Shown here: piece after piece, positions 1-51,292 of the stretch
How the letters are laid out: each line of letters starts with the position of its first letter
Numbering within the stretch: the first letter of the stretch is position 1
Assembly (NCBI GenBank): GCA_900769815.1
Contig: CAAGID010000037.1
Span: 13,115 to 77,114, forward strand
Length of the DNA: 64,000 nt
Source of the DNA: Clostridia bacterium
Lineage (GTDB): Bacteria > Bacillota > Clostridia > Christensenellales > QALW01
Direction of reading: 5' to 3'
Program-made: the position numbers and the translations under genes
The notes under the pieces: model-generated
Database searches by the model: none
Told to the model about the DNA's origin: nothing
What the model saw: only the letters and a program-made list of their open reading frames with translations

Positions 1-2
1 TT

Positions 3-428
3 ATGGATATTAACTCTTTAGATAGGTTTTTAAAAGCTCAAGAAAAAAAGCATGAAAAAGCTCTCAATGAAATAAAAAACGGAAAGAAACGGACGCATTG
101 GATGTGGTATATCTTCCCGCAACTACGTGGCCTTGGTAGGAGTGATATGGCGTATATTTATGGTATTAAAGATTTGGAAGAAGCAAAGTCTTATCTTGCT
201 CATACGGTACTTTCTATGAGGCTTTATGAGCTTTGTGGTGTGTTGTTAGAACATAAGGACAAGAGTGCTTATGATGTCTTTGGGGATATTGATGAAATGA
301 AATTAAAATCATCAATGACATTGTTTGCACTTGCAAGTGAAGATAATTCAATATTTCATCAAGTGCTTGAATGTTTTTATAATGGGGAGATGGACAAGGC
401 TACTTTAAAAATTATAAATCGAAAATAA
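3..428 (+). CDS. DUF1810 family protein
   Basis: 141-aa ORF with HWMWYIFPQLRGLGRS-type motif typical of DUF1810. Followed by a hairpin terminator. Confidence 0.7.
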   Translation: MDINSLDRFLKAQEKKHEKALNEIKNGKKRTHWMWYIFPQLRGLGRSDMAYIYGIKDLEEAKSYLAHTVLSMRLYELCGVLLEHKDKSAYDVFGDIDEMKLKSSMTLFALASEDNSIFHQVLECFYNGEMDKATLKIINRK

Positions 429-430
429 TA

Positions 431-459
431 TCCCGCGGTTTTACGCGGGATGTTTTTTT
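431..459 (+). terminator. Rho-independent terminator of DUF1810 gene
   Basis: Stem tcccgcg (431-437) / cgcggga (444-450), then T-run 453-459. Confidence 0.8.
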
Positions 460-467
460 ATAAAACC

Positions 468-489
468 AGTATTAAAAGAAAGTTTGCAA
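468..489. repeat. Left copy of perfect 22-bp inverted repeat (IR-L)
   Basis: agtattaaaagaaagtttgcaa is the exact reverse complement of 9123-9144. A degenerate direct second copy (14/22 matches) lies at 494-515. Confidence 0.9.
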
Positions 490-590
490 TTTTTGTATTA
501 AAAGTGGCTTACAAATGGAATAAAACACGAGATAATATAAGTATAAAAATAAACTTTAGTTTGTTTTGATACTGAAAGGAGTCATCACAA

Positions 591-1298
591 ATGATTTATG
601 GTTATGCACGTGTTTCAACCACACACCAACGAATAGCAAGACAAGTTACTAATATCCTTGCTATTTACCCAAACGCAACAATAATTAAGGAATTCTATAC
701 TGGCACAACTCAAAATCGACCACATTGGGAAAAGTTTATAACGCAAGTAACAAGCGGTGATACCATTGTTTTTGATAGTGTATCACGTATGGCCCGCAAT
801 AGTGAAGAAGGTTTTAAAGATTATAAAAAGCTTTATGAGTCCGGCATCAACCTTGTGTTTCTTAATGAGCCACTAATTAATACTAGCGTACTTGATTCCA
901 CAAAAAGCAAATTGCTAAACGTAAAAATAGAAACCGGCAACGTAGCAGTTGACTCATTTTTTAAAGGTAATATAGAACTAATTAACAATTTCATACTTGC
1001 TATTGCAGAAGAACAAATTAAAGCTGCCTTTGATCAAGCTGAAAAAGAAGTTACCGACCTTCACTCACGTATCAGTCAAGGTATAAGAGAAGCCAAGAAA
1101 AATGGAACACAAATAGGGTTAGAAAAAGGAACTACACTTATAACAGAAAAATCTATTAAATGCAAAGAGATAATAAAAAAGCATGCCATTGAATTTGGTG
1201 GCACGCTTAATGATATGGAGTTAATGACTCTTTGCAAGATTTCAAGAAATTCCTATTATAAATATAAAAGAGAATTAAAACTTTTCAGGACAACTTAA
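591..1298 (+). CDS. Small serine recombinase (resolvase/invertase family)
   Basis: N-terminus MIYGYARVSTTHQ (catalytic Ser motif) and VFDSVSRMARN. 235 aa. RBS gaaaggag 9 nt upstream of the ATG. Confidence 0.85.
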   Translation: MIYGYARVSTTHQRIARQVTNILAIYPNATIIKEFYTGTTQNRPHWEKFITQVTSGDTIVFDSVSRMARNSEEGFKDYKKLYESGINLVFLNEPLINTSVLDSTKSKLLNVKIETGNVAVDSFFKGNIELINNFILAIAEEQIKAAFDQAEKEVTDLHSRISQGIREAKKNGTQIGLEKGTTLITEKSIKCKEIIKKHAIEFGGTLNDMELMTLCKISRNSYYKYKRELKLFRTT

Positions 1299-1310
1299 AT
1301 AAGAAATGAC

Positions 1311-1339
1311 TTGCAAATCCTAATAAATCATATTATAAT
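1311..1339 (+). promoter_or_regulatory. Consensus sigma-A type promoter (TTGCAA-17-TATAAT) for the giant adhesin gene
   Basis: ttgcaa 1311-1316, 17-nt spacer, tataat 1334-1339. Lies directly after the recombinase stop codon. Confidence 0.6.
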
Positions 1340-1345
1340 AAATAA

Positions 1346-1486
1346 GCCAAACTACAATTATATATAAAGAATCGATAATTAAAAGGGGAAAGTATACCCC
1401 TTTGTGTTCGCGCTATGAATTTGATAAAAATGCAAATTCTTTCGGTGTGAGCACAATGGTTCTTTATATCGATGTAGTTTGGCGAC
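1346..1486 (+). promoter_or_regulatory. Structured 5-prime leader domain (long closing helix plus internal hairpins)
   Basis: 11-bp pairing 1346-1356/1473-1483 and 10-bp pairing 1362-1371/1460-1469 enclose hairpins 1382-1403 and 1417-1439. The heptamer gaatttg recurs at 1492-1498. Confidence 0.45.
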
Positions 1487-1506
1487 TATCGGAATTTGCG
1501 TTTTTT

Positions 1507-1540
1507 GTGCGCTTACTTCGGTAGGCGCACTTTTTGTTTT
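1507..1540 (+). terminator. Strong intrinsic terminator inside the leader, 11 nt upstream of the adhesin RBS
   Basis: 10-bp stem gtgcgcttac/gtaggcgcac with a ttcg tetraloop (1517-1520), followed by tttttgtttt. Confidence 0.7.
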
Positions 1541-1552
1541 AGGGGGGTCTTT

Positions 1553-4500
1553 ATGAAAAGATTTTTATCATTAGCTTTGACCATAGCATTGTTGTTATCG
1601 ATTATGCCCACTGGTGTATTTAGTATTGCAACAAGCGCCGAAGCAGTCAGTAGCACTGACACTAAATTTACCATTACCTGGAGAAATAGTAACGGTGAAT
1701 TACTAGGAACAACATCTTGCGATTACGGTGAAACCCCAATATTTGGAGGCGAAACGCCGGTAAGAGAAAGCGATTCACAATACACCTATACATTTACAGG
1801 GTGGCAACCAGAAATAAAGGCGGCATACAGCGATGCTGATTACATAGCTGTATATAGCAAAACTGCACGAAACTCATATACAATTACATACAATGCAAAC
1901 GGAGGGAGTAACGCTCCCGCTTCGCAAACCAAGGCACCGGGACAAACCATTAAGTTGAATTCCAGTAAGCCGACATGGCAAAATCATGTGTTCTTGGGAT
2001 GGAGTTGCGCATATAATGACACTTTATACCAAACAGGAGAAAATTTCAATGTAGATGCAGACGTGACACTATATGCCGTTTGGAAGGACCCTTGTTCATA
2101 TTGTGATGGCAAAGGAGGATCGTACACCTACTCGACTTGCACAACTTGTAACGGCACGGGTGATGGCTCTATCGTAAAGTGCGCTTTTTGTTATGGTACG
2201 GGAAGAAAGTGCGCTAATTGTGGCAACATATCTGTAACGATAATACAGGGCCTTGGACAAGTATGTTCTAGTTGCGGTTCTACATCAAGAAGGAATTGTG
2301 CATCGTGTAATGGTGTGGGAACATGGACAACCGACTACTGCACAACATGTGGAGGCGACGGAACTACAAGCAGTTATAGTTCGTGCTATTGGTGTGACGG
2401 TGATAAACACGTGGAAACCAGTTTTTCCCGTTATGTATATTTGTATTCAGATGATTCGTTAACTGGTAGTAACACAATATATACCAAACGTCCATATCAA
2501 TTAATCGTACCGTCTAAAACTGGCTACACATTTATCGGTTGGTTTGATTCCCCCGACGGTGGCACGCAATATACAAACGGCGAAGGAGTTAGTTTGTCAG
2601 TTTGTCCAGATTCACCTTCCAGAAATCTTTACGCACATTGGAGTTTGAACTATTATACGATCACCTATGATTGCGAACAAAATGTCAACACCCATGATAT
2701 GCCTGTCGTTTACACTGTCGAGGACGAAAATTTTATATTGAATAGCCAATCCCCCCGCGAGCACTATTATTTCTATTGGAGTGTATTGGATACAAAAGTT
2801 GAAAATTTTGATACATCCATAGCACAGGACGTTGTAGTAAAGGGCGTTTGGGATCCAATTAATTATACAATAACATATAATTTAGATGGTGGCACAGCAA
2901 ACAACAGAACCACATATAACATTGAAACCGACACATTCTCATTGGTCGAGCCAACAAAAGCAGGATACATTTTTACAGGCTGGACCGGATCTAATGGTAA
3001 CGTGCCTGAAACGAATGTAACAATCTCAACAGACCAACTTCAGAACCTTTCATTTACTGCAAATTGGACTATAGCTGTCTACACTATTACATATGAGTTG
3101 TTTGGAGGAGAAAATTCGCTCAAGAATCCCACAACCTTTACAATAAATGACAACGTTGTATTAAAGAATGCAACAAAAGATTACTATACCTTTGCAGGTT
3201 GGTATCTCGACTCTGCATTTACTAAAAAGATTACAAATTTAAATGGATACCACGGCGATCTAACACTCTATGCTCGCTTTGTTTCAAATTCCTTCACAGC
3301 AACTTTTGATCCCGAAGAGGGGCATTTAGCACATTATAATATTACTCTTGTTTGGGGTGGAAATTTACAGAATGAAGTTATAAGCTATAAGACCGGCGAT
3401 ACTTTTTATCCATATAAAGTTGATGTTCCCAGTCGCTCCGGATATCTTTTTAACGGGTGGTATTTAGATTCGTCGTTTAGTACCCCTCTGCCAGAAACAT
3501 ATACTATAGCAAGTGACAAAAAGCTATATGCTAAATGGTTCAAACAGTCTGTGACCAACGCTGAAGAACTGACTTTAGGTGATTATAGGTATACTTGTTA
3601 TGGTGATGCAAGTAAAACGGTTTGCTTTTATGTGTCGCCTGAGCATAGCGGGGAAACTGTTGTAAGTTATTATCTGCGTGGCTATAAATATGATGGTGTT
3701 ATGGAAAGGAAATCGGAATTTAGTATAAAAGATCTTACAACAGGAATAACACTATTTTCTAAAAACACTCTGAACGGGTCAGGTTATACTGTTAATAGCT
3801 TTACTTCAATTACGTTGGTGGCAGGACATACGTATCAGCTTTACACCTATACAATTAACAACAGTTACTTTAATGGCGAGGCAGATATTATAATCTCGAT
3901 CGGTGAAGATCCATTTCCACCAACTTTTGTAAGTTCTGCTTTTGCTACCTATGAAGAAAAATATGGTGAAACTATACAATATCCAGTCCCGATACGAAAG
4001 GATTATGATTTTGTTGGGTGGTACGACATCGACGGAAATCCTATTAGCAGTGTTTGGGATTATACGACCGATAAGACATTTTATCCTCAATGGAAGTTGC
4101 ACGAATTTTCAATCAATTATAACTTAAATGGCGGAATAAACAGTTCTTTGAACGCCATTTCCTATACCGTTGTCGATTCAACAATTACATTATTAGATCC
4201 TTCAAAAGAAGAATATACCTTTTTAGGATGGTATACTGACTCCAATTTCCGGAATCAAATTACAGAAATTAATTGCGAAGATAGGTTGGACTATACTCTG
4301 TACGCTAAATGGATTTCAGACTTCTTTGGGGTTAATTATGAATTGTATGGTGGTGTTAATAACCCTTCTAATAAACAGCATATTGGAAGAACTGAAGAGT
4401 TCACACTCCTGGATCCTACCAGAGAAGGATATACATTTGCTGGTTGGTATCTTGAATCTTATTATAGCACCAAGGTAACAACTCTTTACGGATCAGCGCA

Positions 4501-7500
4501 TCGTGATCAAAAAGTATATGCTAAATGGACGCCCAATTCTTATACGGCAACACTTGATTATAGTGGTGGACAAAATTGCCCGACAGTAGAATTTATTTCT
4601 CAAGGAAATGTAATTAAAACTGTTGATCTTTATAAAGATACTACCTTGAGTTATTTTACACCCGAAGCTCCCGCTGCTAACTTAAAGTTTGCTGGTTGGT
4701 ATACAAATTCATCATGCACAACTTTGTTCAACTTTAATGGAATTGTTAACTATGATGTTACTGTATACGCAAAATGGGTTTCCGTTAACACCAATTATGA
4801 ATATGTTTCTTTGGGTGGTTCCTATGACGTTTCGATTTCTGGTATTGAGAGCCAATATCTTGCCATTATGTCGCCCATAACGCAAACAGTGACGGTTTCG
4901 TCTGTTTCGGGTTTGGATTTATTTGGTTCGATATATGATTCCAATATGAATTTGCTGTACAGTTGTGATGATATTTCTGATGAAAATTTGGATTTCTCAA
5001 TTACATTTGTAATAGAAGCAGGAAAAGTATATTACATTGCTTATAAAGCAAACCAAGTATTTGTGAGCGGAAACGCAACAATTAATATATCGGGCACACA
5101 AAATCCCAGCACCTTTATTACCGGAGATTACACCGAAATTATTGAGTGTGTAAATGTAATATATGCATCCTCTTTTGCATTGCCTATTCCAAAACGAAAC
5201 GGATATGTTTTCCGGGGATGGTTTGACGAAAACGATACGCAAATCACAGATGGAACATGGAATTTTGCTGCTAATAAGACTCTGACGGCAAAATGGGCTG
5301 AATGTTATACAGTTATATTCAAAGATTTTGCTGGAAATATTATCTCTATCAAAACACATTGCTTCGGAGAAGAGATAGTAGCTCCTGAGCCGCCCGCAAA
5401 AGCTCCTGATGAAACATATATTTATCATACTAAGTGGGACAATGACTACACAGGAATCTGCACCGGTGACGCAATATATTCTCCGACTTTCGATAAGGAA
5501 TATATTGAGTACACTGTGATTTTTGCTGATGAAGATGGTACGGAACTTTCGAGAGTAAACTACCATTGGGGAGATGCCGTAACCCCTCCCGACACTCCTG
5601 CCAAGGATGCAGACAAGACTTATACCTACACCTTCAAAGGTTGGGATAAGGATGTGGTTGACTGTGCCGGAAATGCAACCTATACGGCAACCTACACATC
5701 TACCTATATTCAATACACAGTCGTATTCGAGAACTGGGATGGGACAATCCTCTCCACAAAGAATTATCATTATGGTGATGCTATAACTGCTCCTGCCAAT
5801 CCCACTAGACCTAGTGATAATACTTACAGCTACACTTTTACTGGTTGGGATAAGGAATTGGTCTGTGATGGTAATATGACCATAACAGCTATATATTCAT
5901 CGCCCTATAACGAATATACTGTTATTTTTAAGAATTGGAATGGCGTAGTTCTATCAACAAAAGCATACCACTATGGTGATAAGGTAATTGCACCAGCAAA
6001 TCCGACTAAAGCATCAGATAATATTTATAAGTACATCTTTGCGGGCTGGGATAATGAAGTTGTGAATTGTGAAGGTAATACAACTTACACGGCAACATAT
6101 ACACCCTCATATATTAATTATACGGTTGTGTTCAAGGATTGGGACGGTGCTGAAATAAGCAGTAACACTTATCACTGGGGAGAAACAGTAACCATACCTG
6201 CCAATCCAACCCGCCCGTATGATGAAGATTACATTTACGCCTTCGTTGGCTGGGATAAGACAATTACCTCTTGCAATGGAAATGCAGTTTATACTGCTAT
6301 ATATAGCAAGACAGCAATTGCGGTTACATCCATTGCTATCACCACAAAGCCAAATAAACTTAATTACCTTGAAGGCGATTCTTTTGATAAGACGGGTATG
6401 GTCGTTACTGCATACTATAACAATAATACTTCTGCTGTTGTGACTGATTACACCGTTAATGGTTATACATCTACGCCCGGTAGCAAGACTATTACGGTGT
6501 CGTATTTGGGCAAAGAAGATAGTTTCTCTGTGACTGTTGATGGAATGCTAACATATATCTATGACGACATAAATCTTACAGCAACAGTAAATAGATGCGA
6601 GAAAAGTGCAACTGCAATAATTATTCCAGCTACAATTGTTAAAAATGGTAAAACCTATAATGTAACAAGCATAGGAAATGAGGCATTTTTAAATTGTTAC
6701 GAAATAACAAGCGTAATTATTCCCAACAGTGTAACTAATATAGGTGACCAAGCGTTTTTTTATTGCAAAGAATTAACAGAAATTACAATTCCCAACAGTG
6801 TAACGAATATAGGCAACTGTGCTTTTTCTTATTGTGAAAAATTAACAAATGTAATTATCCCAAATAGTGTAACAAATATAGGGCCTTCTGCATTTTCCTA
6901 TTGTAAAGGGTTAACAAGCATTGAAATCCCTAATAGCGTAACAAGTATTGATTACAATGTATTTGGTAGTTGTACAAATCTTACAAGCGTAACGATCCCG
7001 CATAGTGTAACAAGTATAGGTGAGAATGCATTTAATTATTGCACGAGTTTGAAAAGCGTAACGATCCCAAATAGCGTAACAAACATAGAAAACGGCGCAT
7101 TTAGGGCTTGCTATCAATTGACAGATGTAACAATAGGTAGCGGAGTGAAAAACATAGGCGATTATGCGTTTGCGTCTTGTAGTTGGCTTACTGGAGTTTG
7201 GTATACAGGCAGTGCCACAGATAGAGAAAAAATTTCCATTGGAATTGAAAACAATCCAATAACAAACTTGTGGTGGCATTGCAATACCTGTGTAGGGGAT
7301 CATACATATTCTGGTGATTGCGATGCATTTTGCGATAATTGTGAATGGATAAGAGAAACAGATATAGAGCACACATATACTAATAATTGCGATACTTCGT
7401 GCGATATATGCCAAGAAGATGGACGTGTGTTACCTCACAATTACGATAGTGATTGTGATACGGTGTGTAATGATTGTTCAGAAATAAGAGAGCCATTAGC

Positions 7501-7756
7501 AACACATTATTATGACAATGATAAAGATATGGATTGTAATGAATGCGGTTATGAGAGATTTACCCCAGGCGACATTGACGGTGTAGAAGGCATTTCTGAC
7601 CGCGATGCAGTATATCTGTTATATCACACGTTCTTGCCTGGTTCATATCCGGTAAATCAGGATTGCGACTTTAATAACGATGGTGAAATTAACGATAAAG
7701 ACGCTATTTACTTGCTTTATCACACGTTCTTACCTGAATCATATCCCATAGGTTAA
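1553..7756 (+). CDS. Giant secreted repeat adhesin with C-terminal dockerin (2,067 aa)
   Basis: Start moved to ATG 1553 (RBS agggggg; signal peptide MKRFLSLALTIALLL). At least ten Listeria-Bacteroides (Flg_new)-type repeats (YTITYNxNGG...GYTFxGW). Also a CxxCxGxG array, two PPC-like domains, five tandem ~66-aa repeats, a Big_3-like domain and BspA-type LRRs (IPNSVTNIGxxAFxxC). The dockerin has two loops, DIDGVEGISDRDAVYLL and DFNNDGEINDKDAIYLL. Confidence 0.85.
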   Translation: MKRFLSLALTIALLLSIMPTGVFSIATSAEAVSSTDTKFTITWRNSNGELLGTTSCDYGETPIFGGETPVRESDSQYTYTFTGWQPEIKAAYSDADYIAVYSKTARNSYTITYNANGGSNAPASQTKAPGQTIKLNSSKPTWQNHVFLGWSCAYNDTLYQTGENFNVDADVTLYAVWKDPCSYCDGKGGSYTYSTCTTCNGTGDGSIVKCAFCYGTGRKCANCGNISVTIIQGLGQVCSSCGSTSRRNCASCNGVGTWTTDYCTTCGGDGTTSSYSSCYWCDGDKHVETSFSRYVYLYSDDSLTGSNTIYTKRPYQLIVPSKTGYTFIGWFDSPDGGTQYTNGEGVSLSVCPDSPSRNLYAHWSLNYYTITYDCEQNVNTHDMPVVYTVEDENFILNSQSPREHYYFYWSVLDTKVENFDTSIAQDVVVKGVWDPINYTITYNLDGGTANNRTTYNIETDTFSLVEPTKAGYIFTGWTGSNGNVPETNVTISTDQLQNLSFTANWTIAVYTITYELFGGENSLKNPTTFTINDNVVLKNATKDYYTFAGWYLDSAFTKKITNLNGYHGDLTLYARFVSNSFTATFDPEEGHLAHYNITLVWGGNLQNEVISYKTGDTFYPYKVDVPSRSGYLFNGWYLDSSFSTPLPETYTIASDKKLYAKWFKQSVTNAEELTLGDYRYTCYGDASKTVCFYVSPEHSGETVVSYYLRGYKYDGVMERKSEFSIKDLTTGITLFSKNTLNGSGYTVNSFTSITLVAGHTYQLYTYTINNSYFNGEADIIISIGEDPFPPTFVSSAFATYEEKYGETIQYPVPIRKDYDFVGWYDIDGNPISSVWDYTTDKTFYPQWKLHEFSINYNLNGGINSSLNAISYTVVDSTITLLDPSKEEYTFLGWYTDSNFRNQITEINCEDRLDYTLYAKWISDFFGVNYELYGGVNNPSNKQHIGRTEEFTLLDPTREGYTFAGWYLESYYSTKVTTLYGSAHRDQKVYAKWTPNSYTATLDYSGGQNCPTVEFISQGNVIKTVDLYKDTTLSYFTPEAPAANLKFAGWYTNSSCTTLFNFNGIVNYDVTVYAKWVSVNTNYEYVSLGGSYDVSISGIESQYLAIMSPITQTVTVSSVSGLDLFGSIYDSNMNLLYSCDDISDENLDFSITFVIEAGKVYYIAYKANQVFVSGNATINISGTQNPSTFITGDYTEIIECVNVIYASSFALPIPKRNGYVFRGWFDENDTQITDGTWNFAANKTLTAKWAECYTVIFKDFAGNIISIKTHCFGEEIVAPEPPAKAPDETYIYHTKWDNDYTGICTGDAIYSPTFDKEYIEYTVIFADEDGTELSRVNYHWGDAVTPPDTPAKDADKTYTYTFKGWDKDVVDCAGNATYTATYTSTYIQYTVVFENWDGTILSTKNYHYGDAITAPANPTRPSDNTYSYTFTGWDKELVCDGNMTITAIYSSPYNEYTVIFKNWNGVVLSTKAYHYGDKVIAPANPTKASDNIYKYIFAGWDNEVVNCEGNTTYTATYTPSYINYTVVFKDWDGAEISSNTYHWGETVTIPANPTRPYDEDYIYAFVGWDKTITSCNGNAVYTAIYSKTAIAVTSIAITTKPNKLNYLEGDSFDKTGMVVTAYYNNNTSAVVTDYTVNGYTSTPGSKTITVSYLGKEDSFSVTVDGMLTYIYDDINLTATVNRCEKSATAIIIPATIVKNGKTYNVTSIGNEAFLNCYEITSVIIPNSVTNIGDQAFFYCKELTEITIPNSVTNIGNCAFSYCEKLTNVIIPNSVTNIGPSAFSYCKGLTSIEIPNSVTSIDYNVFGSCTNLTSVTIPHSVTSIGENAFNYCTSLKSVTIPNSVTNIENGAFRACYQLTDVTIGSGVKNIGDYAFASCSWLTGVWYTGSATDREKISIGIENNPITNLWWHCNTCVGDHTYSGDCDAFCDNCEWIRETDIEHTYTNNCDTSCDICQEDGRVLPHNYDSDCDTVCNDCSEIREPLATHYYDNDKDMDCNECGYERFTPGDIDGVEGISDRDAVYLLYHTFLPGSYPVNQDCDFNNDGEINDKDAIYLLYHTFLPESYPIG

Positions 7757-7772
7757 CAAAAGGAGAAAAATT

Positions 7773-9005
7773 ATGAAAAAGATTTTATCAGTACTTATTT
7801 GTTTTGCATTAATTTTTAGTTTATCAATAACCGCATTCGCTGCTTCTGCTACATTAAGCGGCGTACCTGCTGAGATTAAAAAGGATTCAACCGCAACTAT
7901 TACAGTTAGCGTAAGCGGAAGTCCTTCGGCTTCTTCGGCTTTAGTACAAGTGACTTTAGGCAGTGGTCTTGAACTTGTTTCGGGCGAGTGGAAAAAAGAT
8001 GGTCTTATGAAAGATTTTAATGCTTCTTCCAAAGAAGGTGTTATTGCACTTTCTTCAGCAGGCAGCTTTGACGGAACCGTATTCAGCTTTGTTGTTAAGG
8101 GTAAGACTGTTTCTTCAACTGCACAAAGCATTACCGTTAAATTGACCTTTAAGAACGGCTCAAGCGAGGTGGGTACAGTAAACGCAAGCAAAACTGTTAA
8201 GGTAGTTTGTGCAAGCCACTCCTACGGTGCATACACTAAAAAAGATAGCTCTAATCACACCCGCACTTGTTCTGTTTGCCAAAGCGTTGAAACAAAGGCT
8301 CACACTTGGAACGGTGGTACAGTAACAAAGAATGCAAACTGTAAGGAAGCAGGTAGCAAAACTCTTACTTGCACCGCTTGTAATGCAACTAAAACTGAAA
8401 CTATTGCAAAAACAAGCAATCATACTTATGGCGCTTGGACTCAGACAAAAGCTCCTACTTGTACTGCAAAAGGCAGTGAAAAACGTACTTGCTCAACTTG
8501 CCAAAAGGTAGAAACAAGGGATGTTAAGGCATTAGGTCACAAAATGAGCGCACCTACAATCACAAAACAGGCCACTTGTAAAGAAGAAGGCTCACAAGAA
8601 GGCGTTTGCTCAGTATGTAAAACAAAATCAGTTCAGGCAATTCCAAAGCTTGAACATAAGTTCGGTGAATTTACTGTAACAAAGGAAGCAACCCAAACAG
8701 AAACCGGTCTTAAAAAAGCAACTTGTACCGTTTGTGGTGAGGTTAAAGAAGAAGTAATACCTGCACTTTCTGCACCAGTAACACCTACACCTGAAGCAAC
8801 ACCAGAAGTTACACCTGATGTAGAACCAACTGTTGAACCAACTGTTGAACCAACTGTTGAACCAACTGTTGCACCTGTTGAACATACACCTAGTCCTCAA
8901 ACTAATGGTATTGCTTGGTGGTGGACGTTGGTTGCTGGCGTTATTGGCGCAGGAATCGGTTTTGCAATAGGCATAACCATTAAAGGAAAGAAAAAAGAAG
9001 AATAA
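7773..9005 (+). CDS. Tail-anchored surface protein with N-terminal cohesin-like domain, Cys-rich ~40-aa repeats and a Pro/Thr/Glu linker
   Basis: Signal peptide, then a ~130-aa beta-rich domain resembling cohesin (by eye). 4-5 repeats of H-x-[YW]...C-x3-G...C-x2-C. (EPTV)x4 linker. C-terminal TM helix plus KGKKKEE tail. No LPXTG motif. Confidence 0.6.
   Translation: MKKILSVLICFALIFSLSITAFAASATLSGVPAEIKKDSTATITVSVSGSPSASSALVQVTLGSGLELVSGEWKKDGLMKDFNASSKEGVIALSSAGSFDGTVFSFVVKGKTVSSTAQSITVKLTFKNGSSEVGTVNASKTVKVVCASHSYGAYTKKDSSNHTRTCSVCQSVETKAHTWNGGTVTKNANCKEAGSKTLTCTACNATKTETIAKTSNHTYGAWTQTKAPTCTAKGSEKRTCSTCQKVETRDVKALGHKMSAPTITKQATCKEEGSQEGVCSVCKTKSVQAIPKLEHKFGEFTVTKEATQTETGLKKATCTVCGEVKEEVIPALSAPVTPTPEATPEVTPDVEPTVEPTVEPTVEPTVAPVEHTPSPQTNGIAWWWTLVAGVIGAGIGFAIGITIKGKKKEE
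8823..8870 (+). repeat. Perfect 12-bp tandem repeat x4 (gaaccaactgtt), coding for EPTV x4
   Basis: Four identical in-frame units read directly in the sequence. Confidence 0.95.
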
Positions 9006-9007
9006 TA

Positions 9008-9047
9008 AAAAAGGTTTTTCTGCGCTGACACAGAAAAACCTTTTTTG
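9008..9047 (+). terminator. Rho-independent terminator
   Basis: 12-bp stem aaggtttttctg/cagaaaaacctt followed by a T-run. Confidence 0.85.
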
Positions 9048-9122
9048 TATGGTTATAGTTTTTGTGCAAATGTTTGTTATTAAAAAATCTGTAAAAAGAT
9101 AGTTTGAAATTTATAATGTCAG

Positions 9123-9144
9123 TTGCAAACTTTCTTTTAATACT
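9123..9144. repeat. Right copy of perfect 22-bp inverted repeat (IR-R)
   Basis: ttgcaaactttcttttaatact is the reverse complement of 468-489. Confidence 0.9.
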
Positions 9145-9166
9145 AGCTTATTCTATATTTATAAAG

Positions 9167-9200
9167 AATCCGTGCCTTGTTTTAAGACACGGATTTTTTT
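9167..9200 (+). terminator. Hairpin plus T-run just outside IR-R
   Basis: Stem aatccgtg/cacggatt followed by ttttttt. Confidence 0.6.
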
Positions 9201-9392
9201 CTACAAAAAATTCTTTAGATATATAAAATTTTGAAAAGTTTTACTGTATAGTACTATAGATGGTTTTTGGGAGGTGAATAAATTTGATTTTAAAAAATTA
9301 TAAAAGGAGTGATAGTTTAAATGATTTAGTGTTGATTTGAATTTGGATATTGTATTTAAAAAATTTGAAATTAATGAAAAGGAAATTTGATT

Positions 9393-9851
9393 ATGGGTAA
9401 TTATTATGATGGAAAGGTTTCTATGAAACCGGATATGAGTAAGATGGATTACATTTGTGAGGATGAATATTCTTTTGAAGTACCTGAGGTTTATTTTGAA
9501 AGTACGGGCGAGGAAAATGAAAAAAATGTATTTGATTGGAACTCTGATTCTATATTGGTTGTTAAAAACAAACGAGTAATTAAATATACGGATACTATTT
9601 TCTCGAAAATACTCTTAAAAGATACAAAGGGTAAAACGGAGTGGTTAGACGGAAGAATTGCTAATATCTTAGGTGTTGATGTTGATGATGCTGAAGACAT
9701 TCGTGAGTCAAAAGAATATAGAATCGAAGAATACGATCTTGAAAAATCACAGAAAAGAATATATAAAGTTGTTCTTGATGAAACTGTAGATATGAGTGAT
9801 ATTGATATTTGTGAAATAAAAAGAATTATTGAAGAAAAAAATAATGATTAA
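9393..9851 (+). CDS. Hypothetical acidic protein
   Basis: ORF with ATG 9393 preceded by aaaaggaaa. No recognisable domain. Confidence 0.5.
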   Translation: MGNYYDGKVSMKPDMSKMDYICEDEYSFEVPEVYFESTGEENEKNVFDWNSDSILVVKNKRVIKYTDTIFSKILLKDTKGKTEWLDGRIANILGVDVDDAEDIRESKEYRIEEYDLEKSQKRIYKVVLDETVDMSDIDICEIKRIIEEKNND

Positions 9852-9952
9852 TAGCTTACAAATATAAAGATAATTAAGTTGTAATAAAATAGTAGAGCTT
9901 TAGTGTAATTATAACGCTAAAGCTCTATTTTTATATATAAAACTAATTACTG

Positions 9953-10426
9953 TTATGAGTGCTGTTCTATATGTTTTTCTAAATCTGAGACAAGCTCTTC
10001 TGCAGTATGTTCTAAATTAAATATATCTATGATATACTGGTGCGCGGACTTATATTCGTTTTCATATATGATTTGAATTAGATTTAATAATATGTCTAAG
10101 TTTATGTCTATGTGTTCTGAAAAAAGTTTTGCAATTAAGGGGATGGGGAGTATATCTATAAAATAATAAGGATGTGCACTACAAAAAGATTTAAGCAGTA
10201 AATGATCATCATACGGGCTAGGAAAACTTTCATCAAAATCTGCACACAAGGCATTAAGTTCACACCAGAGGTTGAAGAAGTTCTGTGTGCTTATAAAATG
10301 TTTGTTGTGAGCACGGCAATGAACAATAATAGCATAAAATATTTTAAATTGTTTTGTGTTGAGCTTGCTGAGAGATTCTTCAATAAGTCTTTGTGAATCT
10401 GATTTTGCATTATTAGTTGTGTTCAT
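9953..10426 (-). CDS. Hypothetical protein, paralogue 1 of an element-specific small-protein family
   Basis: 157 aa. Shares the L-x2-L-N...H-x-x-F core and a C-terminal I-x-x-I...Y motif with ORFs 11474..11824 and 11970..12317. Confidence 0.55.
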   Translation of the reverse strand: MNTTNNAKSDSQRLIEESLSKLNTKQFKIFYAIIVHCRAHNKHFISTQNFFNLWCELNALCADFDESFPSPYDDHLLLKSFCSAHPYYFIDILPIPLIAKLFSEHIDINLDILLNLIQIIYENEYKSAHQYIIDIFNLEHTAEELVSDLEKHIEQHS

Positions 10427-10605
10427 AATTGTCTTCTTTCTGATAGCAATAAATCTATCTTTAACTTTTTAGTTTGTTCAATTAATTTAGCAATTATTTT
10501 TGTTTTGTTTTAAATTTCAAAAAACTTTACTGTATAGTATAGTGAAAGGCAAGTAGATTATTTATAAATAAATATAAAAATCTAAAATCTACTTGTAATT
10601 ATTAT

Positions 10606-10998
10606 ATGAAAAGTAAATTAGATAAGATGTTTGAAAGTGATTTCATCAGGCTTCCCAGACCGTTTGTCAGAAAGTTTAATTTGAACACGGCGGTTATGTT
10701 ATCAGAAATATATTCTGAATATACATACTGGAAAGAACGTAACAGTTTACAGCAAGGGGGTTGGTTCTTCAGTACGGTTGAAAATATGTATTATAATACC
10801 GGGTTAAGTAAACATCAACAATTAGTTTCGTGTAAAGAACTTGAAACATATGGTATAATCAAAGTCAAGCATCACGGAATGCCCAAGAAAAGATATTTTA
10901 AGTTTGATCCGGCGGCGTTTAACAAATTATGTAATGATTTTAGATTAAATTCAAATTCAAATGAAGAAGAAAATGAAACGTTTCAGTTTTCTTTTTAA
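10606..10998 (+). CDS. RepA_N-like (replication initiator A N-terminal, winged-helix) protein
   Basis: FIRLPRPFVRKF...LSEIYSEYTYWKERN...GWFFSTVENMYYNTGLSKHQQLVSCKELETYGIIKVKHHGMPKKRYF matches the RepA_N layout by eye. A GC hairpin terminator follows at ~11004-11030. Confidence 0.5.
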   Translation: MKSKLDKMFESDFIRLPRPFVRKFNLNTAVMLSEIYSEYTYWKERNSLQQGGWFFSTVENMYYNTGLSKHQQLVSCKELETYGIIKVKHHGMPKKRYFKFDPAAFNKLCNDFRLNSNSNEEENETFQFSF

Positions 10999-11200
10999 TA
11001 ATTTTGCTCGCGCAAAGCGCGGGCTTCTTTTAATGTATTTATGTAGAATTGGAGGGGCAATAACAGGGCGTAAAAGAGCAGATATATATAATAATTAGAG
11101 GTTCGATTTTTGATGTATAATAGTTTAATTTTTAGACGTATTTGGTTGATATATTAAATATAAATAATAATAAGAAATAATAATAAATTAATAATATTTA

Positions 11201-11232
11201 TATTATAAATTTTTTAGCAAAAATTTATAATA
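11201..11232. repeat. 14-bp perfect AT-only palindrome (possible origin/DUE) in a ~200-bp AT-rich spacer
   Basis: tattataaattttt (11201-11214), loop tagc, aaaaatttataata (11219-11232). Confidence 0.8.
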
Positions 11233-11473
11233 ATTCTATTTAGTAAAATAAGATAATTTTGTTAGTAAATTAAATAAAAATAAAGTAGTTGTTCAAAAAA
11301 TGAACAACTGGTAGAAGTGGAGGAATAGAGGTAATCAAAATTTGTTGAGGCTGTTATATCTTAATATGGTATAAAATAAGAAAGACTGCTGTTTGTGTCA
11401 GCAATCTTTCTATGACGTGCTTTTATAACTTTTATGAGCATTCATTTATTTTAGCTAATATTCTGTGCTGTAT

Positions 11474-11824
11474 TTAAAACAAATCGTTATCGAAAACATT
11501 TACGTTTGAGTAATAGTGATTTACGATTTCTTGCACGGTAAATCTGCATTTTATCAATTCAACGGCAGAAATTAAACTCATATAGTTGTCGGTGTAAGCT
11601 ATTAAACTATCTATCAGTTGCTTTTTAAATGATTTGTCATCGTTAATCTTGAAAGGATTTTTATCAAAGGATTCTAAAAAATCATTAAACTTATCGTAGG
11701 TAGTAATGTTGAAGTGTTGATGATTAATTTTATAGTAAAATAAAACTAAATCGTGCATCTCAACACTATTAAGAGATTCTAATTTTTGAGTCAATGTTTC
11801 AATTATTTGTTCAGTTGCTTGCAT
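11474..11824 (-). CDS. Hypothetical protein, paralogue 2 of small-protein family
   Basis: 116 aa. LESLNSVEMHDLVLFYYKINHQHFN aligns with the equivalent segments of the two other paralogues. Terminator-like hairpin at ~11380-11412. Confidence 0.55.
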   Translation of the reverse strand: MQATEQIIETLTQKLESLNSVEMHDLVLFYYKINHQHFNITTYDKFNDFLESFDKNPFKINDDKSFKKQLIDSLIAYTDNYMSLISAVELIKCRFTVQEIVNHYYSNVNVFDNDLF

Positions 11825-11969
11825 ATATACATTCTTCTTTCTGTCTAATTATTTTGAATAACAACAGAGCACAAAATATTGTCATTCATATAATTTAGCT
11901 GAAGATAGCTCGCGTAGAAAACAAAACTACGCGAGTGTAAAAAAGTGATGGTAAATTATTTGATAAGCG

Positions 11970-12317
11970 TTATGAATATAAAAGGGTATTAATTATCTGT
12001 TCGAAAGAATAGTTATTTTTTATCATTTCTATAGTTTGAATAACTGTTGGATATTTTGATTCTAATGTAAATTCGGTAGTTAATAGGATTATTAATGATT
12101 TGAATGTAATAGGAACTCTATTACATGGGGTATCAAGATACAAATTGATAAAATTCATATGTATTTGTTCGGGCATAAAGAAATTGTAATGAGGGTTAAG
12201 ATACATATATAGGTTAAATACGGTTTCAAGGTTCTCGTGGGTAAGAGTGTTAAGTTGGTTTGTTATTAGGGATTTGTAGTTGTTTTTAAGATTTTTACTC
12301 ATTTTTTTATAACTCAC
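11970..12317 (-). CDS. Hypothetical protein, paralogue 3 of small-protein family
   Basis: 115 aa. LNTLTHENLETVFNLYMYLNPHYNF, and a C-terminal IEMIKNNYSFEQIIN that resembles VELIKCRFTVQEIVN of paralogue 2. Confidence 0.55.
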   Translation of the reverse strand: MSYKKMSKNLKNNYKSLITNQLNTLTHENLETVFNLYMYLNPHYNFFMPEQIHMNFINLYLDTPCNRVPITFKSLIILLTTEFTLESKYPTVIQTIEMIKNNYSFEQIINTLLYS

Positions 12318-12503
12318 TTTCTTTAGTTGTTATTATAAAATACAGTAAAATATTTTAAGATTTTGTATTTTTTAAAAAATAAATAAAAAAATCTCAACAA
12401 ACATTATGCCTGTTAAGATTTTTCGTTGAAAGCGCGCTTACAAACAAATAAAAACACGTTATAATTTCATTATAATAACGTGCTTAAAAGGAATTATTAA
12501 ATT

Positions 12504-13700
12504 ATGAGTAAAAAGAAATCTAACGGTGAAGGTTCTATTACAAAACGTTCTGACGGTCGTTATATGGGACGTTATACTCTAGACGGTAAACGCTATGCAA
12601 TATACGGTAATACTTTTGAAGAGGTCAGGGTGAAATTAACAGAAGTATTGGCAAGGAAAGATAAAGGAGCTCATATTGCAACTTCAGGATACACTTTATC
12701 ACAATGGCTCAGAGAATGGCTGGAAATATATGCACTTCCTACGGTCAAACAATCTACGTACGTATCATATGAAAGCTATGCTCGGCTTCATTTAGAACCG
12801 GTACTTGGAACAATCAAACTAACAAGTCTATCTGTTGAACAGTTTCAACGATTCTTTAATCAAAAGCAAAAATCACTTTCTCCTAAATCTTTACGCAATA
12901 TATATAATATGCTACATAACTGTCTTGAACAAGCAATAGTTAGTGGTTATTTGCAATGTAATCACTTACTTGGAGTGAAACTTCCGCCTGTTACTAAAAA
13001 AGAAATAACTATTCTTAGTGTGAAAGAACAAAATGCCCTTCACTCTGCTGCCAATGCATCAAGCACTCTTGCAGCGTTTGGAATTATCTTCACACTTAGC
13101 ACTGGCATTCGGCTTGGTGAGTTGCTTGGTTTGCAATGGGGTGATGTAGATTATACAAATCATACTATACATATCCGACGAACTGTCGGACGTCTGCTTA
13201 AAGTTGATGAATCGGGCAAACTAATACAAAAGAAAGACGGAACACAAACAACAGAAATTGTAACCCGAACGCCTAAATCAATAACTGCTCAACGGGTTAT
13301 TCCATTATTTCCTGAAGTATGGAACGACCTTATGATTTATCGTGATAAGCAAGAAACAACGTTAAGCAAGTTGGATATCTCTTTAGCATCCAGTACACCA
13401 ATCTTTGCTACACCTTTGGGCATCATTTATGAACCGCGAACATACGAGGACTTATTTAAACGAACATTAAAAGAAGCAAATCTTCCTAATATTAATTTCC
13501 ATGCCCTACGCCACACCTTTGCCACAAGAGCATTGGAAGCCGGCATGGATATTAAAGTGCTTTCATCTATACTGGGCCATGCACAAGCCTCCACAACATT
13601 AAACCTATATGCCCACGCTTTACCGGACCATAAAAGAGATAGTATGCAGAAGATGGGAGCGTTTTATGGTGTTGGCCAATCGAAGATAATTGGTAAGTAA
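12504..13700 (+). CDS. Tyrosine site-specific integrase (phage integrase family)
   Basis: N-terminal arm-binding-type segment GSITKRSDGRYMGRYTLDGKR. C-terminal HALRHTFATRALEAGMDIKVLSSILGHAQASTTLNLYAH with the catalytic R..H-x-x-R..Y pattern. Confidence 0.9.
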   Translation: MSKKKSNGEGSITKRSDGRYMGRYTLDGKRYAIYGNTFEEVRVKLTEVLARKDKGAHIATSGYTLSQWLREWLEIYALPTVKQSTYVSYESYARLHLEPVLGTIKLTSLSVEQFQRFFNQKQKSLSPKSLRNIYNMLHNCLEQAIVSGYLQCNHLLGVKLPPVTKKEITILSVKEQNALHSAANASSTLAAFGIIFTLSTGIRLGELLGLQWGDVDYTNHTIHIRRTVGRLLKVDESGKLIQKKDGTQTTEIVTRTPKSITAQRVIPLFPEVWNDLMIYRDKQETTLSKLDISLASSTPIFATPLGIIYEPRTYEDLFKRTLKEANLPNINFHALRHTFATRALEAGMDIKVLSSILGHAQASTTLNLYAHALPDHKRDSMQKMGAFYGVGQSKIIGK

Positions 13701-16560: not shown

Positions 16561-16637
<77 letters not shown>

Positions 16638-51263: not shown

Positions 51264-51292
51264 TTGCAATTTTTGGATAAAATAAGTATCAT
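51264..51292 (+). promoter_or_regulatory. groESL promoter TTGCAA-17-TATCAT
   Basis: ttgcaa 51264-51269 and tatcat 51287-51292, immediately upstream of CIRCE. Confidence 0.6.

Follow-up and report, generated by a model that had tools for sequence, protein, structure and literature searches.

A 64,000-nucleotide stretch of Clostridia bacterium DNA (contig CAAGID010000037.1, positions 13,115 to 77,114 of the forward strand), hereafter called the window, carries near its start an 8.7-kb block bounded by two copies of a 22-bp sequence in inverted orientation. The block encodes a small serine recombinase, a large surface protein, and a membrane protein. The left inverted repeat (IR-L), AGTATTAAAAGAAAGTTTGCAA, is the exact reverse complement of the right one (IR-R) at 22/22 positions, and the pair reaches 27 nt if two mismatches are allowed (463-489 and 9123-9149). 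These two are the only copies of the 22-mer in the window at up to three mismatches; the chance expectation is 0.01, and none of the 100 shuffles behind this estimate attained two copies. A 19-nt near-match at 51264 belongs to the groES promoter region and was rejected as a chance match. The outer flanks, ...ATAAAACC and AGCTTATT..., show no target-site duplication. The features of the locus are collected in Table 1.

The locus is part of an integrative element of ~16.8 kb inserted in a tRNA-Met gene. From left to right, the element consists of a tRNA fragment, arm-type repeats, the DUF1810 gene, the IR-bounded block, the backbone genes designated E, the integrase, two more genes, and the tRNA-Met gene. 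The components of a tRNA-targeting tyrosine-integrase element are all present: an integrase lies near an intact tRNA-Met, and 46 nt of the tRNA 3' end recur as a direct repeat at the opposite end of the element. This repeat has been located with 100% identity on a twin contig (L087, 9201-9246; compared loci are cited by such handles), roughly 165-210 bp beyond the left edge of the window. Attachment-site repeats were not found inside the window, the partner of the repeat lying just outside it. The integrase gene (12504-13700) is an addition to an earlier interpretation of this DNA made from its letters alone (the sequence-only reading), in which no integrase was mentioned. The same tRNA-Met target and layout are seen in L010, L012, and L024. 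Across the family, the integration target is either tRNA-Met or a GGGtGRT gene, and the hosts are gut and rumen Clostridia. The family is neither named nor explained in the annotation libraries searched (Pfam, NCBIfam, and PHROGs). Of its genes, E130 resembles the N-domain of replication initiator O, and DUF1810 homologs adjoin the integrase in the related elements L026, L029, L110, and SVPD01.

Table 1. Features of the integrative element in window coordinates.
Feature	Position	Strand	Remarks
DUF1810 gene	3-428	+	PF08837, E 5e-56; outermost element gene on the side away from the integrase
Terminator hairpin T1	427-454	+	Just outside IR-L; −18.7 kcal/mol, z −4.7
IR-L, unit c1	468-489	+	Outermost subsite: GTATTAAAAG motif, AAAG, TTTGCAA; exact inverted copy of 9123-9144
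Unit c2	495-515	+	Direct repeat of c1, GTATTAAAAG-TGG-CTTACAAA; overlaps the −35 box of the recombinase promoter
Promoter-like site of recombinase gene	508-536	+	CTTACA-17-GATAAT
32-bp imperfect dyad, units c3 and c4	541-572		Central TT at 556-557; candidate crossover site and/or autoregulatory operator
Small serine recombinase	591-1298	+	235 aa, Sin-like; PF00239; 101 bp from IR-L
Promoter-like site (1311-1339) and structured 5' leader	1311-1552	+	Terminator hairpin at 1507-1530; 5' of the large surface-protein gene
Surface protein	1553-7756	+	2067 aa; 11 Listeria-Bacteroides repeats, BspA-type leucine-rich repeats (LRR), Big_3; dockerin-like C-terminal repeats by eye only
Membrane protein	7773-9005	+	410 aa; signal peptide and C-terminal membrane helix
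Terminator T2	9007-9046	+	End of cargo operon, inside the repeats; −21.1 kcal/mol, z −8.5
IR-R, lone c1 copy	9123-9144	−	Adjoins backbone hairpin and replication-gene block, as in standard elements
Hairpin T3	9163-9199	+	Conserved backbone hairpin, 5' of c1 in standard elements; −15.7 kcal/mol, z −5.6
Backbone genes E154 (+), E157 (−), E130 (+), E116 (−), E115 (−)	9393-12317		Order and strands mirror the standard arrangement relative to the recombinase
Tyrosine integrase	12504-13700	+	3.4 kb beyond IR-R; shared-promoter copy at 12425-12465, 5' of the gene
tRNA-Met (CAT)	16561-16637	−	Intact; integration site; last 46 nt repeated at the other element end

The recombinase matches the small serine recombinase family PF00239 with 68.7 bits (cut-off 23.3) and possesses the serine nucleophile and conserved arginines of its catalytic domain. 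Residues R7, S9, R43, D62, R66, and R69 are invariant in 26 recombinase homologs, and the catalytic residues are intact. The best relatives of known structure are Sin/Bin3 (E 4e-9); for Gin, E is about 1e-4. The alignment with Sin covers Sin residues 1-102, the catalytic domain alone, at 25-29% identity. The protein is longer than the usual small serine recombinase (235 versus about 180-210 aa). An AlphaFold model with a mean predicted local distance difference test (pLDDT) score of 66.6 places the catalytic domain before a 53-residue helix (118-170) and three C-terminal helices (186-234), and its best structural match at this model quality is full-length Sin (2r0q_C), aligned over the full length. 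No Pfam helix-turn-helix family was detected in the protein. The family is very large, with more than 7000 homologs at E<1e-40.

For comparison, ~150 loci encoding relatives of the recombinase have been retrieved; 33 upstream regions were aligned, and 61 distinct ones were built into a profile. Homologous recombinase genes have in common a conserved block of ~125 bp that begins with the 22-mer and runs up to the start codon. Conservation sets in exactly at the 22-mer, and the sequence 5' of it is unrelated among relatives. The exact 22-mer has been found in several Clostridia metagenome-assembled genomes, immediately 5' of homologous recombinase genes. The block contains a res-like region of ~105 bp composed of the direct units c1 and c2, a promoter, and a 32-bp dyad, in which the motif GTATYAAAAG is present in three direct copies and one inverted copy. 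The dyad is formed by one direct and one inverted copy and is conserved including its centre; its family consensus is self-complementary at 24/32 positions (hand count) around the central TT. The res profile also matches the dyad stretch on the reverse strand, and its match to IR-R is confined to model positions 13-40. In a distant clade (~53% protein identity), all four motif copies are GTACCAAAAG or a one-base variant of it, the third being ATACCAAAAG. Since these copies change together, the motif tracks the adjacent protein. The subsites are about equally conserved (1.1-1.5 bits per position), so per-subsite conservation, tried as a guide to the crossover site, did not discriminate between them. 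The two halves of c1, compared as inverted half-sites, agree at ~1/11 positions (hand count), and c1 holds a single GTATYAAAAG motif. The stretch 469-500 resembles the dyad at 20/32 positions and has a TT at 484-485, and its right arm is degenerate. Conservation and motif content show the 22-mer repeats to be two copies of the outermost putative protein-binding unit of a res-type regulatory and recombination region.

The promoter part of this region (GCGCTTACAAAC...AACACGnnATAAT) is not confined to the recombinase gene; related elements also have it 5' of other genes, including that of the integrase. Copies have been found at 12425-12465 of the window and in L022 (~2976-3051), L121 (7235-7267), and L162 (13820-13858), and this looks like a promoter type common to these elements.

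What the sequence-only reading had described at the ends of the block is borne out by these data. It had pointed out the perfect 22-bp inverted repeats and the missing target-site duplication, both of which stand, and a 235-aa resolvase/invertase-type serine recombinase near IR-L, which the PF00239 match corroborates. The degenerate direct second copy of the 22-mer that it had placed at 494-515 is real and conserved in relatives, and the suggested likeness to a multi-subsite res site agrees with the conserved block that starts at the 22-mer. The terminators noted just outside both repeats correspond to the hairpins T1 and T3, the right one being a conserved backbone feature that precedes c1.

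The layouts of related elements have been compared using the gene tables of close relatives and tblastn of the window's neighbour genes against all loci. In the standard order, the target (tRNA-Met) is followed by the integrase, the replication genes (E116, E115, E157, E130, and E154), a hairpin, the c1-c2-promoter-dyad-recombinase module, variable cargo, and the repeated tRNA fragment. Among 49 distinct recombinase modules with informative neighbours, 43 show this standard layout and four the inverted one, while one is the second module of SVPD01000022.1 and one is mixed. The inverted layouts occur in the window lineage, L006/L012, L117, and L121 (recombinase identity 100%, 84%, 67%, and 67%, respectively) and fall in at least three recombinase lineages. 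The closest complete relative, L010, has the same tRNA-Met target and the same arm repeats by the far attachment (att) site, with an integrase 74% and a recombinase 91% identical to those of the window. Relative to the tRNA and the integrase, the L010 recombinase has the opposite orientation to that of the window.

The junctions of the block locate the change precisely. When reversed (9420 to 9000), the right junction is colinear with the E154-promoter-hairpin-c1 stretch of L015 and L020, and the homology stops right after ...TTTGCAA, which is the c1/c2 boundary. IR-R is therefore the backbone's own c1 in its standard place, which in standard elements is ~245 bp from the divergent E154-type gene, just past the conserved hairpin. 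At the left junction, homology to the standard site begins with c1 and continues to the right. Everything from c2 to the end of the cargo (recombinase, surface protein, and membrane protein) has the reverse orientation, with the second c1, IR-L, at the far end beside DUF1810. By gene order and junction alignment, the IR-bounded 8.7-kb block is thus shown to be inverted relative to the element backbone, with its breakpoints at the repeats. This arrangement points to a segment that has inverted at least once in the past and is perhaps still reversible.

The contig SVPD01000022.1 has two full modules, each consisting of the site and the recombinase gene, in inverted orientation. The modules are 832 bp long and 82% identical overall, and their first 32 nt, including c1, are identical. 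One module is located by DUF1810 and the other by the E genes, which are the neighbourhoods of the two c1 copies of the window. The same contig (L002, L004, L089, and L093) also encodes two near-identical tyrosine integrases, a surface protein of 1500 aa, and an AAA ATPase paired with an S8 peptidase. Its content suggests related elements in tandem, or nested in one another, beside a GGGtGRT gene, the integration target of L159 and L162.

The explanation that we favour, with a little more confidence than doubt, is that the repeats are c1 copies of the res-type region of a Sin-like recombinase in a tRNA-Met element, and that the segment was inverted between these inverted copies. The inversion would have occurred by recombination between the two c1 units, most likely catalysed by the element's own recombinase. 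The c2 unit and the dyad, present beside one c1 only, could serve as single-copy accessory sites in a geometry like that of Hin with its enhancer, and the segment could still flip. Junctions of the opposite orientation would read ...TTATAAAACC-c1-CTGACATTAT... and ...GAATAAGCT-c1-TTTTTGTATT.... The sequence-only reading had listed an invertible segment with its own recombinase and an unclear output as one of three options. This option is the best fit in that the block is inverted relative to the standard layout with breakpoints at the repeats, while the public assemblies hold a single orientation only. The stronger proposal, that the Sin-like recombinase actively flips its own gene and the 8.7-kb surface-protein cargo by pairing a full multi-subsite site at one end with one outer unit at the opposite end, with c1 as a portable junction for inverting or swapping cargo, is tentative and in our view doubtful.

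Several observations weigh against inversion between the c1 copies. The two public contigs with the locus have the same orientation, and exact-protein look-ups of the recombinase, DUF1810, and E154 gave long contigs of this arrangement only. A lone second c1 was found in no other locus among the ~150 by seed-and-extend searches, by matching with the 26-mer or 22-mer of the respective locus, or by an nhmmer profile of the whole site, and the other three inverted-layout loci have no second c1. The exact 22-mer has no matches in viral and JGI metagenome collections. Only one recognisable binding motif and no dyad is present in c1, and the best dyad, the more conventional candidate for a crossover site, is single-copy. 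Conservative inversion, moreover, makes no duplicate and would not account for the second c1. Finally, no regulatory consequence of flipping is visible in the layout of promoters and terminators. All promoters and terminators of the block are internal and move with it, and terminators are present on both outer sides. Since the promoters belong to the block and terminators shield it whichever way it lies, inversion probably alters nothing in expression, and we read it as a structural by-product of the two sites and not as a phase switch.

Other contigs and matches bear less directly on the question. A 98%-identical recombinase sits on a 1-kb contig that ends short of c1. L178 and L179, two short contigs of unrelated samples (corresponding to window 9170-9955), carry the E154 gene in identical form; they break off within the hairpin when 26 bp remain to IR-R and are uninformative on orientation. 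On both sides their ends, inside hairpins, fall on almost the same bases, which may reflect assembly-graph branching among mosaic elements. A degenerate c1 pattern, searched in species-representative genomes, returned the standard sites, the SVPD01 pair, and chance matches in coding DNA. Of the apparent partner repeats, the L071 and L062 matches are no genuine sites and the L022 and L121 matches are copies of the shared promoter.

The main rival to inversion between the c1 copies, which we consider possible and still rather unlikely, holds that IR-R is a dead scar. An ancestor with two modules would have flipped the block by homologous recombination between inverted modules of ~0.8 kb, or by exchange at the dyads, and one module would later have been deleted except for its c1, leaving repeats that are now idle. 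SVPD01000022.1 provides such a two-module arrangement in the same neighbourhoods as the c1 copies of the window, and the DUF1810-hairpin-c1-recombinase adjacency is common to both loci. That c1 is not a dyad, and that the other inverted-layout loci do without a second c1, also speaks for a scar. On the other hand, the deletion would have had to end exactly at the c1/c2 boundary, keeping c1 at 22/22 positions and leaving no trace of c2, promoter, dyad, or gene. The 76 bp between T2 and c1 match nothing else in the loci compared. A neutral remnant should also have decayed, and the neighbouring backbone proteins are just 41-79% identical to their SVPD01 counterparts. A different role for the lone c1, to which we give only a small probability, is that of a site bound by the recombinase or by some other protein and kept for a regulatory or architectural function near the promoter of the replication block, the inverted layout resulting from an unrelated rearrangement. 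Autoregulation, in which the sites control the promoter of the resolvase gene, is common in the Tn3, Sin, and beta systems, the repeat spans exactly the conserved c1 unit, and c1 in standard elements always keeps its distance of ~245 bp from the divergent E154-type gene, past the conserved hairpin. That hairpin, however, is a terminator hairpin lying between c1 and the E154 promoter; the coincidence of the breakpoints with c1 on both sides is left unaccounted for by this role, and no second protein-binding candidate has been identified.

The two remaining options of the sequence-only reading fare worse. One took the repeats for the ends, or terminal inverted repeats, of a mobile cassette whose serine recombinase would deliver the surface protein together with its membrane partner. 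Perfect inverted repeats do bracket a recombinase with cargo, but IR-R occupies its standard position in the backbone of the larger tRNA-Met element, the outer flanks lack a target-site duplication, and the cassette as a unit was not found elsewhere. Moreover, relatives with 90-95% identical recombinases have a single repeat and different cargo, a recombinase gene ~95% identical in DNA is followed by other cargo from its stop codon onwards, and the closest homolog of the membrane protein is in an ordinary chromosomal operon of another species. This option is therefore very improbable. The other, a chance match or an insertion into a pre-existing 22-bp palindrome, can draw on the AT-richness of the DNA and on the few exact 22-mers that occur by chance in unrelated genomes. 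It is effectively refuted by the expectation of 0.01 matches in the window and by the homologous conserved contexts of both copies. In standard elements c1 directly precedes c2 and the recombinase, and no relative has a c1 abutting an inverted c1.

If an enzyme drives the flip, a large block would be inverted by a resolvase-like protein that brings together one complete regulatory site and one bare unit, a design between the textbook "resolvase" and "invertase". It would also offer a route by which very common, undescribed small integrative elements of rumen and gut Clostridia could rearrange their surface-protein cargo. Were the repeat a mere scar, the locus would still show an inversion breakpoint of a mobile element with clean resolution, though its general interest would be limited.

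The cargo itself shows signs of exchange. Comparison of L166 (Logan ERR13731121) with window 526-1620 shows a recombinase gene that is ~95% identical at the DNA level, homology that ends at the stop codon, and different cargo thereafter; the cargo has been exchanged directly 3' of the recombinase gene. The closest homolog of the 410-aa membrane protein (P0122, 84% identical; L180-L187) follows a 729-aa SH3_3 protein in a housekeeping chromosomal neighbourhood of another species. Because of this neighbourhood, the cargo looks as if it had been captured from a chromosomal surface-protein operon. The membrane protein has no Pfam match of its own, and a cohesin assignment is not supported; PF00963 (cohesin) is annotated on about 20 of 120 homologs among the matches listed, each below 50% identity to the protein. 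A 12-bp tandem repeat (8789-8872) encodes its (E/V)PTV units. On the twin contig the protein has 406 aa, against 410 in the window, so the number of (E/V)PTV repeats differs between samples.

In the surface protein, a secreted repeat protein, a run of CxxC motifs is present towards the N-terminus at residues ~200-290 (window ~2090-2400), some of them CxxCxGxG as in DnaJ zinc fingers, and a further cysteine-rich stretch lies ahead of the C-terminal dockerin-like repeats. A dockerin assignment was rejected, as Pfam does not support it (Dockerin_1, E 3.9). The gene most likely starts at ATG 1553 and not at TTG 1496, because a terminator-like hairpin occupies 1507-1530 and because, on the twin contig, the called gene begins at the equivalent of 1553. 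The leader that precedes it, 1311-1552, is strongly structured (−79.3 kcal/mol, z −8.0) and ends at this terminator, just 5' of the gene. A leader core of ~85 nt with the terminator is conserved 5' of other giant surface-protein genes (SVPD01, L013, and L014). Compensatory changes are seen in 7/40 predicted pairs, four in the terminator stem and three in an inner hairpin. An Rfam search of window 1-12000 gave no meaningful match, the leader included, and the leader is a candidate for an unclassified cis-regulatory RNA. In the backbone, TACTGTATAGTACTATAG with the perfect 12-bp palindrome TATAGTACTATA occurs at 9244-9259 and 10526-10539, before two backbone genes, and is conserved in L015 and L020; this repeat is probably an operator.

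Three groups of known systems can be compared with the locus. As in Hin, Gin, Cin, and Pin, a segment is bracketed by two short inverted sites and the enzyme is a serine recombinase. The Hin segment, too, holds the recombinase gene, beside one site, and has single-copy accessory DNA, the enhancer, near that site. However, hix and gix are 26-bp imperfect dyads whereas c1 is not a dyad, and the segment of the window is 8.7 kb long compared with 1-4 kb. Neither a promoter nor an alternative gene end is switched in the window, and the available assemblies hold one orientation, the inversion being seen only as a fixed difference between genomes. The recombinase is also no closer to the invertases than to the resolvases (Gin E about 1e-4, Sin 4e-9).

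The res sites of the Tn3 family share with the window a resolvase gene and an upstream three-part site at the border between conserved backbone and variable cargo, as well as various combinations of flanks and cargo around the module. In Tn3 and gamma-delta res, site I lies furthest from the resolvase gene, like the outermost c1 of the window. In contrast to these transposons, the window element has no transposase and no 38-bp terminal repeats, it moves by a tyrosine integrase, and its subsites include direct repeats. Neither of the marks of a transposable cassette, a target-site duplication and the same unit at unrelated sites, was found.

The third group comprises Sin with its resH site, from staphylococcal plasmids, and the beta recombinase with the six site of pSM19035. 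In Sin-type res sites, an inverted-repeat crossover site I is accompanied by a direct-repeat site II, and resH is 86 bp long (PMC2428073). Beta is associated with both resolution and inversion in the title of Canosa et al. 2003, as given in the reference list of PMC2428073. Sin is the best match of the recombinase in both sequence and structure, and these systems likewise have a compact multi-subsite region directly 5' of the gene, in which an inverted-repeat site is combined with direct units and overlaps the gene's own promoter. They differ in that the identity is only 25-29% and restricted to the catalytic domain of a 235-aa protein with a modelled 53-residue helix, and in that the region of the window spans ~105 bp with three direct units and one inverted unit, compared with the 86 bp of resH, and is differently spaced. 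The host is a tRNA-integrating element and not a plasmid, and the partner site is a lone outer unit c1 and not a second full res, whereas resolution of the Sin/beta type takes place between two full res sites with the help of HU/Hbsu. The enzyme and the site of the window thus resemble, in sequence and predicted architecture, the Sin/beta-type resolution systems.

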